NCBI RefSeq assembly: GCF_016903815.1 | Contig: NZ_CP069973.1 | Source of the DNA: Escherichia coli | GTDB lineage: Bacteria > Pseudomonadota > Gammaproteobacteria > Enterobacterales > Enterobacteriaceae | Strand: one strand, 5' to 3' | Length of the DNA stretch: 64,000 nt | Shown here: positions 28,715-42,612 of the stretch, one piece after another | How positions within the stretch are numbered: the first letter of the stretch is position 1 | Layout of the letters: each line of letters starts with the position of its first letter | Made by a program: the position numbers and the translations under genes | The notes under the pieces: model-generated | Databases searched by the model: none | Seen by the model: the letters and a program-made list of their open reading frames with translations, nothing else | What the model was told of the DNA's origin: nothing

Positions 28715-28851
28715 AATCTTAACTACAATATGATTCATTTTGATGATTGTTTCATAAGGAACAGTGAAGTAAGATCTAAGAGGAGTTAAATTTTATACAG
28801 TATAATCATAATATTGCAGCAAGGTGGTTATAATTGAAAGAATATTTAGAT

Positions 28852-30309
28852 ATGAATACATCTCATGTAAGAGTTGTTACTCATATGTGTGGGTTCCTGG
28901 TTTGGCTCTATAGTCTTTCAATGTTGCCACCAATGGTTGTAGCATTGTTTTATAAAGAAAAAAGCCTGTTCGTTTTCTTTATAACTTTCGTTATATTTTT
29001 TTGCATTGGTGGCGGAGCGTGGTATACAACTAAGAAATCTGGCATTCAATTACGTACCCGTGATGGGTTTATTATAATTGTAATGTTTTGGATTTTGTTT
29101 TCTGTTATTAGTGCATTCCCTTTATGGATTGACTCAGAACTTAATTTAACGTTCATTGATGCTCTGTTTGAAGGGGTTTCTGGAATAACAACAACAGGAG
29201 CAACTGTAATTGATGATGTTAGTTCATTACCTCGGGCATATTTGTACTATCGGTCACAGTTAAATTTTATAGGTGGTTTAGGAGTTATTGTTCTGGCGGT
29301 TGCTGTATTGCCATTATTGGGTATTGGTGGTGCAAAGCTTTATCAGTCAGAAATGCCGGGGCCATTTAAGGATGACAAACTCACTCCCCGCCTGGCCGAT
29401 ACGTCACGGACACTGTGGATAACTTATTCTTTATTAGGTATTGCTTGTATTGTCTGTTATAGACTTGCAGGAATGCCTTTGTTTGATGCTATTTGTCACG
29501 GGATTTCCACAGTTTCGCTTGGTGGTTTCTCAACTCATAGCGAGAGTATCGGATATTTTAATAACTATTTGGTTGAGCTGGTGGCTGGTTCTTTTTCCCT
29601 GCTATCGGCTTTCAACTTCACTCTTTGGTATATTGTTATTAGCAGGAAAACGATAAAACCTTTAATCAGAGATATTGAACTTCGTTTCTTTCTGTTAATA
29701 GCCTTAGGGGTGATCATTGTTACCTCTTTCCAGGTCTGGCATATAGGTATGTATGACTTGCATGGAAGTTTTATTCATTCGTTTTTTCTTGCCAGCTCCA
29801 TGCTCACTGATAATGGTTTAGCTACGCAGGATTATGCAAGTTGGCCCACGCACACGATAGTGTTTTTGCTGTTGTCAAGTTTCTTTGGGGGATGTATAGG
29901 TTCAACTTGTGGTGGAATTAAGTCACTTCGATTTCTTATACTTTTCAAACAAAGCAAACACGAGATAAATCAGCTTTCTCATCCCAGAGCGTTGTTGAGT
30001 GTAAATGTAGGAGGGAAGATAGTTACAGATCGTGTAATGAGGTCTGTATGGAGTTTCTTTTTTCTTTATACTCTCTTCACGGTGTTTTTTATACTGGTGT
30101 TAAATGGTATGGGATATGATTTTCTTACATCATTTGCAACAGTGGCTGCATGTATTAATAATATGGGATTAGGTTTTGGGGCTACTGCATCGTCATTCGG
30201 AGTGCTTAATGACATTGCAAAATGTTTAATGTGCATAGCTATGATTCTTGGTCGCCTTGAAATTTATCCTGTTATTATATTGTTTTCAGGTTTTTTTTGG
30301 CGCTCCTAA
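28852..30309 (+). CDS. trkG: Trk-system K+ uptake protein TrkG
   Basis: 485 aa from MNTSHVRVVTHMCGFLVWLYSLSMLPPMVVALFYKEKSLF..., matching recalled K-12 TrkG. The gene is strongly AT-rich. Confidence 0.95.
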   Translation: MNTSHVRVVTHMCGFLVWLYSLSMLPPMVVALFYKEKSLFVFFITFVIFFCIGGGAWYTTKKSGIQLRTRDGFIIIVMFWILFSVISAFPLWIDSELNLTFIDALFEGVSGITTTGATVIDDVSSLPRAYLYYRSQLNFIGGLGVIVLAVAVLPLLGIGGAKLYQSEMPGPFKDDKLTPRLADTSRTLWITYSLLGIACIVCYRLAGMPLFDAICHGISTVSLGGFSTHSESIGYFNNYLVELVAGSFSLLSAFNFTLWYIVISRKTIKPLIRDIELRFFLLIALGVIIVTSFQVWHIGMYDLHGSFIHSFFLASSMLTDNGLATQDYASWPTHTIVFLLLSSFFGGCIGSTCGGIKSLRFLILFKQSKHEINQLSHPRALLSVNVGGKIVTDRVMRSVWSFFFLYTLFTVFFILVLNGMGYDFLTSFATVAACINNMGLGFGATASSFGVLNDIAKCLMCIAMILGRLEIYPVIILFSGFFWRS

Positions 30310-30446
30310 TATATGGCTGATTTATAATTGTGAGTTTAATATTATGTTGACTCACTCATTGATCCAATACCTAACTTTACCAGCAACACCTCCGTCCCCA
30401 GTAGCACTGGCTGCTGGGGTGCGTTTTATTCATAAAGCAAGGCTGT

Positions 30447-31238
30447 ATGAGCGAGAAATTAAAGATAGTCTATCGCCCATTACAAGAATTGTCACCGTAT
30501 GCGCACAACGCCAGGACGCACAGTACTGAGCAGGTGGCACAACTGGTAGAAAGTATTAAGCAATTCGGCTGGACTAATCCGGTGCTGATTGACGAAAAGG
30601 GCGAAATTATTGCGGGTCACGGTCGTGTTATGGCGGCTGAAATGCTCAAAATGGATTCTGTTCCGGTCATTGTTCTGTCTGGCCTGACGGATGAGCAGAA
30701 AAAGGCGTACCGCCTGGCAGATAATCGCCTGCCGATGAATGCTGGCTGGGATGAAGATCTGTTGCGGATGGAGCTGTCGGACCTAATCAATGCTGATTTT
30801 GATGTCTCCCTGACAGGCTTCATCCCGACAGAAATTGATGAACTGTTGACGGATGTTTTGCCCGGTACAGGAAATGAGGAGGAGCCGTATACGACGAAAA
30901 TTGATACGCCTGTTTATGAGCCGTCGGGCGGTAAACCGGATATCAGTGAACTGTACGACGATACGAAAACTCAGGAGCTGATCAGCCGGATACGTTCGGC
31001 GTCCCTTGAGCCTGATATTGAGAAATTCCTCCTGTGTGCGGCAGAACGTCACACGGTGTTTAATTTCAGCAGAATTGCGGACTATTACGCTCACGCCCCC
31101 TCTGAAATTCAGTGTTTTTTCGAGGAGTCGGCGCTGGTGATCATTGATTATCAGCAGGCTATTGAAAATGGATTTGTCCGGATGACGCAGCGCATGGTGG
31201 AGATCATGCATGGTGGTGAGGAGGAGGAATATGCGTGA
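30447..31238 (+). CDS. ParB/Srx N-terminal-domain protein (full-length counterpart of the K-12 ynaK remnant)
   Basis: 263 aa. ParB-like nuclease-domain motifs are present (LSPYAHNARTHSTEQVAQLVESIKQFGWTNPVLID...IIAGHGRVMAA...LTDEQKKAYRLADNRL), followed by an unrelated acidic C-terminal half. Confidence 0.8.
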   Translation: MSEKLKIVYRPLQELSPYAHNARTHSTEQVAQLVESIKQFGWTNPVLIDEKGEIIAGHGRVMAAEMLKMDSVPVIVLSGLTDEQKKAYRLADNRLPMNAGWDEDLLRMELSDLINADFDVSLTGFIPTEIDELLTDVLPGTGNEEEPYTTKIDTPVYEPSGGKPDISELYDDTKTQELISRIRSASLEPDIEKFLLCAAERHTVFNFSRIADYYAHAPSEIQCFFEESALVIIDYQQAIENGFVRMTQRMVEIMHGGEEEEYA

Positions 31239-32163
31239 TGATTTTTGCGCCTTTATTCTGACTCACGGGCGACCGGACAAAGTTCTGACTTACCGGACGT
31301 TGCGTCGTGCTGGCTATACCGGGAAAATTTTTATCGTTGTTGATGATGAAGATAAGACACGGCATCAGTACATGGCTGAATTTGGGGAACAGGTGCTGGT
31401 GTTTTCCAAAGCCGATATCGCCAGTCGTTTTGACGAAGCCGATAATTTCTGTGACCGCCGCTCAATTTTTTACGCCCGTAATGCCTGTTTCGACCTGGCA
31501 AAACTGGTCGGGTGTAAATACTTCATTCAGCTCGATGATGATTATCACGAGTTCCAGTTTCGGGTGGATCGCAACTATGACCAGGCCTATTTTCCGATAA
31601 GGAAACTGGATGCGATCCTTTCTGAAATGCTGGCGTACTACGAATCAATACCTGCTCTTTCCATCGCTATGTCGCAGGGCGGGGATTTTCTTGGTGACAA
31701 TGGCGGCCATGCTTCGTGGGTGAAACGCAAGGCAATGAACAGCTTTATCTGTTCGGTTGAACGACCGTTCTCATTCATGGGGCGCATTAACGAGGATGTG
31801 AATACGTACACGAATCTCGGTCGCTGTGGTGAATTGTTTATGACGATCGGTGCTGTCCAGTTAGGGCAGAAACAGACGCAGAAAAACAGCGGCGGAATGA
31901 CCGAGCTGTATCTGGATTCCGGAACCTACGTTAAAAGTTTTTACTCCGTCATGTATGCGCCGTCGTGCGTAAAAATCTCACTGATGGGTGCCAGCCATAA
32001 ACGCATTCACCATCAGGTCACCTGGAACAACGCTGCAGTAAAAATCCTTCACGAAAAATACAGGAAGAAGACACCCTGCATATCAATGGGGGTGACAAAT
32101 GATTCCGTATTCGAAAGTCGAGTCTCTGGCAGCGTGCCGGATGACTGCACAACAAATCGCTGA
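31231..32163 (+). CDS. uncharacterised protein, possibly GT-A-fold nucleotide-sugar transferase-like (counterpart of the K-12 ydaY remnant)
   Basis: 310 aa from ATG 31231 (SD GAGGAGGA), with an 8-nt overlap with the ParB-like gene. It has an N-terminal beta-alpha start (CAFILTHGRPDKV), IFIVVDDED and a hydrophobic strand plus QLDDDY (DxD-like). The fold call is weak. Confidence 0.55.
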   Translation: MRDDFCAFILTHGRPDKVLTYRTLRRAGYTGKIFIVVDDEDKTRHQYMAEFGEQVLVFSKADIASRFDEADNFCDRRSIFYARNACFDLAKLVGCKYFIQLDDDYHEFQFRVDRNYDQAYFPIRKLDAILSEMLAYYESIPALSIAMSQGGDFLGDNGGHASWVKRKAMNSFICSVERPFSFMGRINEDVNTYTNLGRCGELFMTIGAVQLGQKQTQKNSGGMTELYLDSGTYVKSFYSVMYAPSCVKISLMGASHKRIHHQVTWNNAAVKILHEKYRKKTPCISMGVTNDSVFESRVSGSVPDDCTTNR

Positions 32164-32350
32164 CGTTCTGGATGTTGATCTGAACCGACTGAAAGAAAAT
32201 CGGGAAGCAATGACAGATTTTTATGCGGCCATCCGTAAGGGCAGAGCGAAAGGTGAAGCCGAGTTACGAGCGGCATTGTTTAAGCTTGCCAGAAAAGGGG
32301 ATGCCTTTGCTCTGCGCGAACTACTCAGGGTGGATAAAAATCAGGACTAA
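32099..32350 (+). CDS. small HTH protein upstream of the terminase
   Basis: 83 aa (CRMTAQQIADVLDVDLNRLKENREAM...). It overlaps the end of the preceding ORF by 65 nt, so the start is uncertain (alternative Met at 32141). Confidence 0.45.
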   Translation: MIPYSKVESLAACRMTAQQIADVLDVDLNRLKENREAMTDFYAAIRKGRAKGEAELRAALFKLARKGDAFALRELLRVDKNQD

Positions 32351-32353
32351 CTG

Positions 32354-33448
32354 ATGAGCAGACCGGACTGGGGGGCGTTGCAGCAGGAGTATATTGCTGA
32401 ATACACCCGCTCCGGTATATCTCCGGTGGCATGGTGTGAAGCAAGGGGACTGAATTACGCAACAGCCCGTCGTTACATCAAAAAAACTCCGAAAAATGCG
32501 CAGACAGAAATGTGCAAAACTGCGCAAAAAAGTGCGCAGAAAAAATCTGCGCAGACTGCACAAAAGCGGAACGAAAAATCTCAGGAAAAAAAGCCAGTAT
32601 TCGATGCGGGCCTGAATGAGGGCGACGCGGAGGAATTTTCGTTCTGTCCCGATGAATTCGGCATTTCTGACCAGCAGGCTAAGTTTGCGATGCTTGTTGC
32701 TCAGGGTAAAAAGCCGACAGAGGCGTACCGACTAGCCGGTTATGAGGGGCAAGGTGCGACAGCTAATAGCAACGCCAGTCGTATGCTTAGAAATGCCAGG
32801 GTTTTTCGCGCTATCAGCTACTTCCGCAATCAGTACCAGAAACGCTATACCGCAGACCTGGATTTACTAGTGAGTCAGTTGATGGCCATTGTCCTGGCCG
32901 ACCCCAATCAGCTTGCACAATTTCGCCGTGTTAACTGCCGTTATTGCTGGGGCGAGAATCATCTCTACCAGTGGCGCGATATAGCAGAATTCGACAAGGC
33001 AGCGGCGCAGGCTTCCAGAGATGGCAAACCCGAACCGGAATATGGAGGCCTCGGCTTTGTTGATAACGCCATACCCAATCCGGACTGCCCGAAGTGCTGC
33101 GGTGAGGGAACGGGACAGCTTTATATGGCTGATACCACTCTGCTTGATGGGGATGCGCGGCAATTATATGCAGGGGCAAAATTCGGAAAATTCGGCGTTG
33201 AGATCCTGCTGGAGGATAAGGCTGCCGCCCGGCGTGAATTGTTGCGTTTGCTTTCTGCTGGCGGGGCTTTATGTGCAGATAAGCGGCTACAGGAACTGGA
33301 AATTGAACGGCGCAGAATGGAAAACCAGAAGCTGCGCAAAGAGATCGAAACGGTGGAAGATAATGAACATCCCCAGCCTGTGGCGATCAATATTAATGTG
33401 GTTGATGCCAGAGTAAGGAGTGATGAAGATGATCTCTCCGACGCTTAA
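32354..33448 (+). CDS. terminase small subunit (Terminase_2-like core with N-terminal HTH and C-terminal Cys4 motif)
   Basis: 364 aa. Core motif is FAMLVAQGKKPTEAYRLAGYEG...NASRMLRNARV. CRYCWG...CPKCCGEG forms a Cys4 cluster. It lies directly upstream of the large subunit. Confidence 0.75.
   Translation: MSRPDWGALQQEYIAEYTRSGISPVAWCEARGLNYATARRYIKKTPKNAQTEMCKTAQKSAQKKSAQTAQKRNEKSQEKKPVFDAGLNEGDAEEFSFCPDEFGISDQQAKFAMLVAQGKKPTEAYRLAGYEGQGATANSNASRMLRNARVFRAISYFRNQYQKRYTADLDLLVSQLMAIVLADPNQLAQFRRVNCRYCWGENHLYQWRDIAEFDKAAAQASRDGKPEPEYGGLGFVDNAIPNPDCPKCCGEGTGQLYMADTTLLDGDARQLYAGAKFGKFGVEILLEDKAAARRELLRLLSAGGALCADKRLQELEIERRRMENQKLRKEIETVEDNEHPQPVAININVVDARVRSDEDDLSDA
32497..32564 (+). repeat. array of six TG(C/T)(G/A)CA(A/G)A motifs inside the small-terminase gene (candidate pac/TerS binding site)
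   Basis: Motif starts are at 32497, 32511, 32521, 32533, 32548 and 32557 (spacings 14, 10, 12, 15, 9 nt). Four copies are exact TGCGCA(A/G)A. Confidence 0.4.
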
Positions 33449-34730
33449 TGTGCCTCAGGCGCGATTTCTTTCAATGCCCCATAAATTTAAAGCCTATATT
33501 GCTGGTTTTGGCTCGGGCAAAACATGGGTTGGGTGTGGCGGCATATGCAAGGGGATTTGGGAGCATCCAGGTATAAATCAGGGATATTTTGCGCCAACGT
33601 ATCCCCAAATTCGCGATATTTTTTACCCTACAGTGGAAGAAGTTGCTGCTGACTGGGGATTGAACGTAAAAATTAATGAGGGAAATAAAGAGGTTCACTT
33701 TTATTACGGACGCCAGTATCGGGGAACCACTATCTGCAGATCGATGGAGAAGCCACAAACGATCGTCGGTTTCAAAATTGGTAATGCGTTGGTGGATGAA
33801 CTGGACATTTTGCCGAAGGAAAAAGCCAGAACGGCGTGGCGCAAGATAATTGCACGTATGCGTTATAAGATTGATGGACTTCGCAACGGTATTGACGTTA
33901 CAACCACGCCGGAAGGATTCAAATTTGTCTACGAGCAGTTTGTTAAAGCCGTGCGTGAAAAAACAGAGCTGGCCTCACTGTATGGTCTGGTGCAGGCATC
34001 TACTTTCGATAATGAAAAGAACCTGCCAGCAGATTACATTCCTTCGCTTCTTGAATCATACCCTCCAGAGCTGATTAAAGCCTATCTTCGAGGACAGTTT
34101 ACTAACCTGACAAGTGGTACTGTTTACCATCAGTTTGACCGGAAACTGAATAATTGCGAAGAAGTGGAGCAGCCAGGGGAGCCGATTTATATTGGGATGG
34201 ATTTTAACGTTGGAAAGATGGCGGGAATCGTCCATGTGCTGCGTTTGGGGCTTCCATGTGCGGTAACTGAAATCATCAATGCCTACGATACGCCGGATAT
34301 GATCCGCATCATTAAAGAACGCTTCTGGCTGTATGATGGGAATGATTACCGGAAAGTGAGGGAAATTTATATTTATCCAGATGCTTCCGGGGATTCCAGA
34401 AAATCAAGTAACGCAAGTACGACGGATATAGCCCAGCTTAAGCAGGCTGGTTTTAACGTTGTGGTGAACAGCTCGAACCCGCCAGTAAAAGATCGCGTTA
34501 ACTCAATGAATGCAATGTTCTGCAATGCCAATGGTGAGCGTCGCTATAAAGTTAATGTGAAGCGTTGCCCGTTATATGCCGAATCTCTGGAGCAACAGGT
34601 CTGGGATGAGAAGGGGGAGCCTGATAAAAAATCTGGCAATGATCACCCGAATGATGCCGGAGGTTATTTCATCGTTAAGCAATTCCCTATTGTCAAACCG
34701 ACCGGAAGAGTCACATCACTTCGGATTTAA
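33423..34730 (+). CDS. terminase large subunit
   Basis: About 435 aa with Walker A GFGSGKTWVG, Walker B-like ALVDELD and a C-terminal nuclease region. Start ambiguous (33420, 33423 or 33429). Confidence 0.9.
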   Translation: MKMISPTLNVPQARFLSMPHKFKAYIAGFGSGKTWVGCGGICKGIWEHPGINQGYFAPTYPQIRDIFYPTVEEVAADWGLNVKINEGNKEVHFYYGRQYRGTTICRSMEKPQTIVGFKIGNALVDELDILPKEKARTAWRKIIARMRYKIDGLRNGIDVTTTPEGFKFVYEQFVKAVREKTELASLYGLVQASTFDNEKNLPADYIPSLLESYPPELIKAYLRGQFTNLTSGTVYHQFDRKLNNCEEVEQPGEPIYIGMDFNVGKMAGIVHVLRLGLPCAVTEIINAYDTPDMIRIIKERFWLYDGNDYRKVREIYIYPDASGDSRKSSNASTTDIAQLKQAGFNVVVNSSNPPVKDRVNSMNAMFCNANGERRYKVNVKRCPLYAESLEQQVWDEKGEPDKKSGNDHPNDAGGYFIVKQFPIVKPTGRVTSLRI

Positions 34731-42216: not shown

Positions 42217-42612
42217 ATGAAGGACTTAAAACCTATAGACGGGTTAAAACTGTTGGTGGCAAGCAGCGATAACGATCAGTATCGCTCCCGTAATGCATTA
42301 ATCCGTCGTCACATTGAGAAAATGGATGCCAGTTTGCACGTCGGAACGAAGGAGTTTGATATTTCAAAGGTTTCCGAGGTAGATTCTGTTGATGATTTAC
42401 TCATTGATAATGCTGCTCGTTATCTGCTGAAAGACTGGAAAGGGGTTGGTGAACTGGTTAATGGTGCTGAGGTTGCACTGGAATATACGCCAGAACGAGG
42501 GATCGCGCTGCTTAAGCAGAATCCAGAGTTGTACTGGCAGATCCTTGCAGAAGCAGCCAGCATCGCCCAGGGTAAAGAGCAGCAGAAGCAGGATACGATA
42601 AAAAAGCCATAG
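42217..42612 (+). CDS. tail assembly chaperone (gpG analogue)
   Basis: 131 aa from MKDLKPIDGLKLLVASSDNDQYRS.... It ends 6 nt after a slippery heptamer. Confidence 0.75.
   Translation: MKDLKPIDGLKLLVASSDNDQYRSRNALIRRHIEKMDASLHVGTKEFDISKVSEVDSVDDLLIDNAARYLLKDWKGVGELVNGAEVALEYTPERGIALLKQNPELYWQILAEAASIAQGKEQQKQDTIKKP
42600..42606 (+). promoter_or_regulatory. programmed -1 ribosomal frameshift site A_AAA_AAG (G to GT)
   Basis: In the zero frame it reads ata aaa aag cca tag. The -1 frame is open from here to 42920 and joins the 42687..42920 ORF. Confidence 0.75.

Follow-up and report, generated by a model that had tools for sequence, protein, structure and literature searches.

A glycosyltransferase gene and its adaptor gene ahead of the terminase genes of Rac-type Escherichia coli prophages: a candidate DNA-tethered glycosylation module

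Directly upstream of its terminase genes, a Rac-type prophage of Escherichia coli carries two overlapping genes that, on balance, probably encode a glycosyltransferase module tethered to DNA, with an analogy in phage thymine dioxygenases that depend on ParB. The DNA analyzed is a stretch of 64,000 nucleotides (nt) from contig NZ_CP069973.1 (RefSeq assembly GCF_016903815.1), hereafter the window, which contains a complete Rac-type lambdoid prophage. The first gene encodes a protein of 263 amino acids (aa) with an N-terminal ParB/Srx-type domain and a C-terminal domain, here called the adaptor; the second encodes a 310-aa glycosyltransferase of the TAGT family. The adaptor and the transferase are neighbors almost everywhere, with or without a ParB domain. 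The original prediction for this locus, made from the sequence, had proposed that the pair modifies phage DNA. The open reading frames (ORFs), their 8-nt overlap (transferase ATG at 31231–31233, ParB gene stop TGA at 31236–31238) and the good Shine-Dalgarno site (GGAGG) preceding the second ATG were confirmed from the sequence, and all the motifs it had quoted are present in the translations: TDEQKKAYRLADNRL, GHGRVMAA and DEDLLRMELSDL...LTGF..EIDELL in the first protein and FILTHGRP, IVVDDED and QLDDDY in the second. RefSeq annotates the same two reading frames; an alternative reading of the transferase (317 aa) would begin at 31210, and the RefSeq start is 31231.

The transferase matches the Pfam model PF20691 (TAGT) at 120.6 bits (E = 1.1e-34; cut-off 27.5), with residues 8–222 aligned to positions 4–205 of the 205 in the model, and PHROG 842 at 1.6e-103. 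The beta-glucosyl-5-hydroxymethylcytosine (HMC) alpha-glucosyltransferase of phage T6 scores 37.2 bits on the same Pfam model, below the window protein. The second protein had been predicted to be a nucleotide-sugar transferase, and this is borne out by its clear membership in PF20691, a family whose characterized members act on DNA. Enzymes of the TAGT family have been modeled as GT-A glycosyltransferases, sister to GT2, that act on DNA; those of T2 and T6 transfer a sugar onto 5-hydroxymethylcytosine or its glucosylated form, and 288 of 753 phage genomes carry "solitary" TAGT homologs whose function is not known (PMC13216743). The window transferase, labeled "GREB1-related protein" in some RefSeq genomes, has at least 8000 homologs, with up to 50–58% identity across phyla. 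The triplet D102–D103–D104, which follows a predicted strand, does not vary among 23 homologs of 59–82% identity, nor do about 70 further positions, and the subfamily has a conserved C-terminal extension of ~70 residues past the end of the Pfam model. Searches of the PDB with the transferase, by sequence and by profile, returned only chance-level matches, and the PF20691-type family appears to be without any solved member; a single-sequence AlphaFold model of the protein had a predicted local distance difference test score (pLDDT) of 37 and is unreliable. The transferase matches none of the defense-system models of PADLOC. At one locus, in a metagenome-assembled genome of Hyphomonadaceae (L103, 3581–6161), a single ParB-adaptor gene is followed by two tandem transferase-like ORFs, the first of which (564 aa) contains an extra domain of ~280 residues.

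The C-terminal half of the first protein is the conserved and separable partner of the transferase, as judged from sequence comparison, and the ParB domain is an exchangeable accessory. When the upstream proteins of 21 distant loci are aligned, conservation is much stronger in the C-terminal half than in the ParB half; the C-terminal half contains the motifs YTxKIxxPxYEP, FLxxAAxRHxVFxF, IAxYYAH (IADYYAH in the window), SALVIIDF/Y and AIExGF. Among 37 non-redundant ParB-type pairs, mean pairwise identity is 31% in the ParB domain, rising to 51% in the adaptor and 54% in the transferase. A search with residues 140–263 alone recovered mostly proteins of ~130–140 aa without a Pfam domain, and the three such stand-alone adaptors that were checked on their contigs lie directly upstream of a TAGT gene, mostly overlapping it, and lack a ParB domain. 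The same arrangement of stand-alone adaptor and TAGT gene is present in 191-kb Vibrio phages. The adaptor family comprises ~1400 clusters at 50% identity, and the domain is always C-terminal in proteins of 130–350 aa. No Pfam model covers it, and no solved structural relative was found. The original prediction had described an unrelated C-terminal half that replaces the methyltransferase of phage ParB–DNA methyltransferase fusions. The first part of this description stands, in that only residues 10–144 match the fusion models and residues 148–263 have no Pfam match; the idea of a passive replacement does not, since this half is a conserved adaptor in its own right.

The N-terminal half has both the profile match and the fold of a ParB/Srx (PF02195) N-terminal domain. 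The Pfam ParB_N match scores 29.3 bits (E = 9e-7; cut-off 26.3), and the AlphaFold2 model of the 263-aa protein (58-sequence alignment, mean pLDDT 77.7) consists of two confident domains, residues 1–135 and ~155–240, with a disordered acidic linker between them. Residues 10–144 match the N-terminus of the PADLOC type II methyltransferase model (MTase_II) at 1.5e-38 and PHROG 498 at 9e-51, in agreement with the proposal that this is a ParB module of the kind found in phage ParB–methyltransferase fusions. Candidate residues for contacting a nucleoside triphosphate (NTP) are present: N21, R23, G57 and R60 (in G57-H-G-R60) and D92-N93, which include the Box I arginine, the Box II glycine and arginine and the Box III asparagine. 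The model contains the N-terminal domain, the linker and the adaptor bundle, with no helix-turn-helix domain; in the prophage, no ParA is annotated and no parS was identified, and the NCBIfam ParB models score far under their cut-offs. The ParB domain was also considered as the essential partner of the transferase; this was rejected because most members of the family do not have it.

The pairing was followed in 25 genomic loci from a species-dereplicated genome collection and in 80 viral contigs seeded by distant stand-alone adaptors. In all 25 genomic loci, a ParB-adaptor ORF lies immediately upstream of the transferase on the same strand, overlapping it or within a few bases. The hosts include Enterobacteriaceae, Pantoea, Serratia, Bacteroides and Dysgonomonas, as well as Lachnospiraceae, Desulfovibrionaceae, Thermodesulfobacteriota, Prosthecochloris (Chlorobi), Saccharibacteria, Opitutia, Thiotrichales and Hyphomonadaceae; among cultured viruses, the ParB-type pair is carried by the Lactobacillus phages phi jlb1 and c5, the Nocardia phage NTR1 and the haloarchaeal virus HHTV-2. 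In the viral contigs, the transferase starts no more than 150 nt downstream of the adaptor in 73 of the 80, usually with an overlap, and lies farther off in five; the remaining two contigs end too early. The co-occurrence on which the original prediction had staked its proposal thus holds at every one of the 25 genomic loci and at 78 of the 80 viral ones, with two contigs too short to tell. The identities of adaptor and transferase also correlate (Mantel r = 0.44, a value reached in 0 of 2000 permutations), with a contribution from shared ancestry. Near-universal co-occurrence and co-variation together argue for a functional pair. The viral contigs scanned at first were all near-identical E. 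coli prophages, which say nothing about co-variation. Where synonymous sites are unsaturated, the ratio of non-synonymous to synonymous substitution rates (dN/dS) is ~0.1, and this value, combined with the 50–58% identity across phyla, argues for an active, self-sufficient function.

The adaptor bears one of two different N-terminal parts, and the two forms differ in genomic position. A ParB domain is fused to 17 of the 80 viral adaptors; the other 63 are stand-alone proteins of ~132 aa. All but one of the stand-alone adaptors (62/63) have a Q..[LMI]F motif in a short N-terminal head, typically MKQINLFG and with the consensus Q-[ITLFV]-N-L-F-G; among 1014 other ORFs (100 aa or longer) on the same contigs, just 3 have the motif within their first 15 residues. 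Proteins that bind the bacterial beta-sliding clamp share the consensus QL[SD]LF. The ParB-fused pairs usually lie directly upstream of terminases, which belong to several unrelated Pfam families (Terminase_6N, Terminase_3, T7-type, GpA and TerL_ATPase). In phage c5 the pair begins 90 nt from the cos end, and in HHTV-2 eight small genes separate it from the large terminase gene. The stand-alone pairs are found mostly in replication modules, among genes for DnaB, DnaA-like proteins, RecT/ERF and exonucleases. A ParB domain and a clamp-binding-like peptide would both be ways of staying on DNA, and of the indirect arguments for an enzyme that works on or at DNA, their exchange on the same adaptor is the strongest. 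Two stand-alone pairs (L191 and L192, 2958–8020) are flanked by genes resembling nicotinamidase and F420 ligase and by a nicotinate phosphoribosyltransferase gene; in L191, an N6/N4 DNA methyltransferase gene also follows the pair.

The favored reading is that this two-gene module brings a nucleotide-sugar transferase onto DNA. The adaptor would be the obligate partner. Its invariant YTxKIxxPxYEP peptide and its helical bundle are the probable means by which it binds or activates the transferase, with its N-terminus carrying an exchangeable DNA-tethering device. In Rac-type prophages the tether would be the ParB/Srx NTP-binding domain, which lacks a helix-turn-helix, and in many other phages the short N-terminal Q-x-x-L/M-F peptide, which is beta-sliding-clamp-binding-like. 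A Rac-type prophage would make the pair from its late operon, immediately ahead of the terminase, and replicated phage DNA would then receive its sugar shortly before packaging or in the course of it, most plausibly as an escape from host restriction or other DNA-targeting defenses.

Several systems show parts of this design. ParB-like proteins are required by phage thymine dioxygenases acting on double-stranded DNA (5mYOX176/ParB176 and relatives; O'Toole et al., PNAS 2026, PMC13229309). Like ParB176, whose C-terminal domain serves for dimerization, the window protein is modeled as a nucleotide-binding domain followed by a short helical segment, a disordered linker and a domain at the C-terminus, and has no helix-turn-helix domain; as in those systems, it is encoded beside an enzyme (there one that modifies DNA after replication), often near terminase genes, and its candidate NTP-contacting residues are conserved. 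The window system differs in that the partner enzyme is a glycosyltransferase in place of an Fe/2-oxoglutarate dioxygenase, none of which was found in the prophage; furthermore, the C-terminal domain of the ParB protein belongs to a distinct, separable family that is also found without a ParB domain. With the T2/T6 beta-glucosyl-HMC-alpha-glucosyltransferases and the TET-associated enzymes, the window transferase shares the Pfam family PF20691, a DxD-type motif and a phage origin. Unlike the T2/T6 enzymes, whose hosts are phages that make hydroxymethyl bases, the window subfamily occurs, in the genomes and contexts screened, without a hydroxymethyl-base pathway and has an obligate adaptor gene and the C-terminal extension of ~70 residues. 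In the phage ParB–DNA methyltransferase fusions, the N-terminal 140 residues are homologous to the window protein, including the acidic WD...LTGF...E-I-D-E-L-L segment, but in the window there is no methyltransferase domain and ParB is fused to an adaptor paired with a separately encoded enzyme. Coupling of a DNA glycosyltransferase to a clamp, as the Q..LF heads of the stand-alone adaptors suggest, has a parallel in the T4 alpha-glucosyltransferase, which co-purifies with the gp45 sliding clamp (PMC13216743). The T4 enzyme, however, is of the GT-B fold and makes its own contact with the clamp, whereas the link in the window module would go through a separate adaptor, and the Rac type would use the phage's own ParB-type domain in place of the replication clamp. 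Finally, unlike the segregation ParB proteins (Spo0J, KorB and Noc), the window protein has no helix-turn-helix, no ParA partner and no identified parS, its GERR glutamate is replaced by histidine, and its C-terminal domain is unrelated.

Several observations weigh against this reading. At the level of the tether, the catalytic glutamate of the canonical GERR motif is His58 in the window protein, and the Bacteroides clade of the module lacks the Box II arginine (R60): the Bacteroidales loci L089, L091, L098, L102 and L104 read GNGVYEQA where the others read GHGR or GERR. In canonical ParB, the Box II arginine is needed for nucleotide binding. Given the histidine in the window protein and the missing arginine in this clade, an NTP-driven clamp cycle is not assured. 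In the 2026 dioxygenase study, mutation of the NTP residues of ParB did not abolish activation (PMC13229309). The Q..LF head is a candidate beta-clamp-binding motif by its resemblance to the consensus, and the stand-alone adaptor of Vibrio phage pv27 (L277, 4459–4878) does not have it. In pv27 a long polar N-terminus takes the place of the head, and these 191-kb phages may have a third way of localizing the module. At the level of the enzyme, comparison of the transferase alignment with the T6 enzyme gave no signal and no pairwise similarity is detectable, the link between them being visible only through the Pfam profile, and the assignment of the transferase as a putative GT-A, DxD enzyme follows from family membership and the literature. 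In addition, eukaryotic GREB1, which has a related glycosyltransferase domain and is the origin of the RefSeq name, is reported to be a protein O-linked N-acetylglucosamine (O-GlcNAc) transferase (PMC7968844).

The acceptor is the main difficulty. A TET/JBP dioxygenase, a hydroxymethylase and a first glucosyltransferase were sought among the annotated genes and unannotated ORFs of the prophage, in the complete genomes of phi jlb1 (38 kb) and c5 (32 kb) and in five Pfam-labeled metagenomic contexts, and none turned up; a search of the prophage for a methyltransferase was likewise negative. Nor are such enzymes, TET_JBP included, among the 25 most frequent families of 213 neighboring proteins at 32 loci. 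Three prophage ORFs (167, 189 and 262 aa) have no Pfam match, and the 262-aa one lies in the replication module. With no source of a hydroxymethyl acceptor found, a DNA acceptor is here without precedent, and the target need not be DNA. One of three options should apply: the acceptor is in ordinary DNA, which would be new chemistry; another molecule is glycosylated; or there is an unseen source of the acceptor. The first of these, in which a pair without an oxidase glycosylates an ordinary DNA component (a canonical base at its exocyclic amine or a ring nitrogen, the sugar-phosphate backbone or a DNA end), is put forward tentatively and is somewhat doubtful. As for the donor, genes for a GDP-mannose 4,6-dehydratase, a nicotinamide adenine dinucleotide (NAD)-dependent epimerase, a sugar C-methyltransferase and a hexapeptide acyltransferase lie beside the pair at one or more of 20 pooled viral loci, which suggests that some members may use a dedicated, unusual sugar donor.

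The second option would make the module a system for glycosylating a protein or some other non-DNA molecule, such as the terminase, the portal, the capsid, a host factor or the invariant Tyr and Thr residues of the adaptor itself, and the ParB or clamp-binding part would then merely localize the reaction or serve otherwise. Phage glycosyltransferases that decorate virion proteins are known from mycobacteriophages. This explanation needs no hydroxylated base, it has the precedent of GREB1, and the invariant and probably extended peptide Y148-T-x-K-I-x-x-P-x-Y157-E-P could as easily be a substrate as a docking element; moreover, the pair stands at the head of the structural gene block in the prophage, phi jlb1 and c5. 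It accounts poorly for an adaptor that bears two different DNA-associated tethers and for a stand-alone form that resides in replication modules far from structural genes, and those members of PF20691 whose experimental characterization can be traced act on DNA. A protein or other non-DNA target is considered unlikely.

Less likely still is that the transferase requires a hydroxymethyl-pyrimidine or a pre-glycosylated base made elsewhere. It would then act on the DNA of other phages or on rare oxidized bases, or with help from an unrecognized oxidase encoded elsewhere, and perhaps have little or no activity in Rac-type prophages. The known chemistry of the family agrees with such a requirement. 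Clusters of phage dioxygenases often hold glycosyltransferases (31%), ParB (27%) and terminases (19%), and dioxygenase profiles recover thousands of contigs without a TET/JBP annotation (PMC13229309). The three window proteins without a Pfam match also leave room for such an oxidase. However, the complete phage genomes of 32–38 kb that carry the pair show no candidate oxidase or hydroxymethylase, TET_JBP is not among the frequent neighbors, and both the identity across phyla and the dN/dS speak for a function that does not wait on outside help. Very improbable, finally, is a ParB-like protein that serves as a packaging accessory (a nuclease or packaging-site factor, comparable to the HNH proteins beside HK97-type terminases) with the transferase as an unrelated passenger: the usual place of the pair directly upstream of terminases, its closeness to the cos end in c5 and the frequent annotation of ParB/Srx domains as nucleases would suit this role, but most members of the module do without the ParB domain, the adaptor–transferase link is near-universal, stand-alone forms are mostly away from terminases, and the terminases downstream of ParB-fused pairs are of unrelated families, so that no specific protein partner is conserved.

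The original prediction took the place of the pair in the late operon, directly before packaging, to fit a function on phage DNA such as protection from restriction, which remains an inference. The prophage is a 100% match to that of E. coli strain 7/2 across the 41.7 kb compared, and its genes run from the lysis genes through a trkG insertion, a hairpin, the ParB-adaptor gene and the transferase gene to the terminase genes and the portal gene (Table 1). The hairpin has the form of a strong terminator and may end trkG transcripts in lysogens, insulating the late genes; if so, the pair would be expressed only from anti-terminated late transcription. A short ORF overlaps the 3' end of the transferase gene, and the overlap encodes the 20-residue non-conserved tail of the E. 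coli transferase. This ORF matches an internal segment of the small-terminase PHROG, is shorter in RefSeq (69 aa) and recurs downstream of the pair in enterobacterial relatives.

Table 1. Features of the module and its surroundings in the window
Feature	Position	Strand	Remarks
trkG (potassium transporter)	28834-30309		Inserted gene between lysis cassette and ParB gene
Terminator-like hairpin	30396-30419	+	Between trkG insertion and ParB gene; 10-bp stem, 7 G-C pairs, then T-rich tail
ParB_N-adaptor fusion gene	30447-31238	+	263 aa; full-length form of K-12 ynaK
ParB/Srx (ParB-CTPase fold) domain and helix-helix segment	30447-30851	+	Residues 1-135
Acidic linker, predicted disordered	30855-30905	+	Residues 137-153; pLDDT <50; length and sequence vary among homologs
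Adaptor domain	30888-31175	+	Residues ~148-243; YTxKIxxPxYEP peptide, then helical bundle
Shine-Dalgarno sequence of transferase gene, GGAGGAGG	31220-31227	+	Inside 3' end of ParB gene; sequence read directly
TAGT-family glycosyltransferase gene	31231-32163	+	310 aa; PF20691 1e-34, PHROG 842 1.6e-103
GAT GAT GAT codons of invariant D102-D103-D104	31534-31542	+	DxD-type metal/nucleotide-sugar motif, after strand YFIQL
83-aa ORF	32099-32350	+	Overlaps 3' end of transferase gene by 65 nt; PHROG 309 at 8e-23
Small terminase subunit gene	32354-33448	+	Pfam Terminase_2, Terminase_6N, Terminase_6C (both subunits together)
Large terminase subunit gene	33420-34730	+	Pfam Terminase_2, Terminase_6N, Terminase_6C (both subunits together)
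Full-length ydaY	~42253-42612		Between tail tube and tape-measure genes

Among 5426 complete E. coli genomes, 888 have both genes intact. All that E. coli K-12 has left of the ParB gene is its first 254 nt, known as ynaK (equivalent to 30447–30700 of the window). The original prediction had also taken K-12 ydaY to be a fragment of the transferase gene. This is wrong, and ydaY was rejected as a transferase remnant: in intact prophages it is a separate gene, situated among the tail genes, and K-12 is therefore left without any remnant of the transferase. From the position of ydaY in the intact prophage, the ynaK–ydaY junction of K-12 represents a deletion of ~11.8 kb, in which the adaptor was lost along with the transferase, terminase and head genes. 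In a 2026 screen, over-expression of the truncated K-12 ynaK, which is only a fragment of the ParB domain, raised the minimum inhibitory concentrations of six antibiotics (PMC12924614).

Parts of this picture are known already, namely the family names, the idea that ParB directs modification, and the 2026 experimental example of the dioxygenases. The name TAGT and the proposal that modification enzymes are directed by ParB reportedly go back to Iyer et al. in 2013 (NAR 41:7635), and an earlier listing of ParB–TAGT neighborhoods by the same authors is possible. The literature search found no publication on the intact pair and no experimental study of it, as had been predicted. Neither the pairing of TAGT with the adaptor, the separability of the adaptor from ParB and the clamp-motif alternative, nor the split between packaging and replication and the consistent lack of an acceptor-making enzyme, was found in the literature searched.

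If the DNA-tethered reading is true, the 2026 finding that ParB acts as an activator or tether would extend from dioxygenases to glycosyltransferases, with a modular design of enzyme, adaptor and interchangeable DNA tether (a ParB domain or a clamp-binding peptide). Two small E. coli prophage genes and a K-12 host without the transferase offer a convenient test system. Even with a protein as its target, the module would represent a new and widespread phage glycosylation system. If DNA is glycosylated, roughly a sixth of the sequenced E. coli strains, along with many viruses of the gut, soil and archaea, would carry a modification that does not start from hydroxymethyl-pyrimidines, with a chemistry undescribed for DNA and with a bearing on the evasion of restriction, CRISPR and type IV defenses and on the sequencing and cloning of prophage DNA. 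Should the acceptor prove to be ordinary DNA, temperate phages of E. coli, Bacteroides, Lactobacillus, actinobacteria and haloarchaea would share an unseen post-replicative glycosylation, delivered by a phage ParB-type domain at packaging or by the host replication clamp during synthesis.

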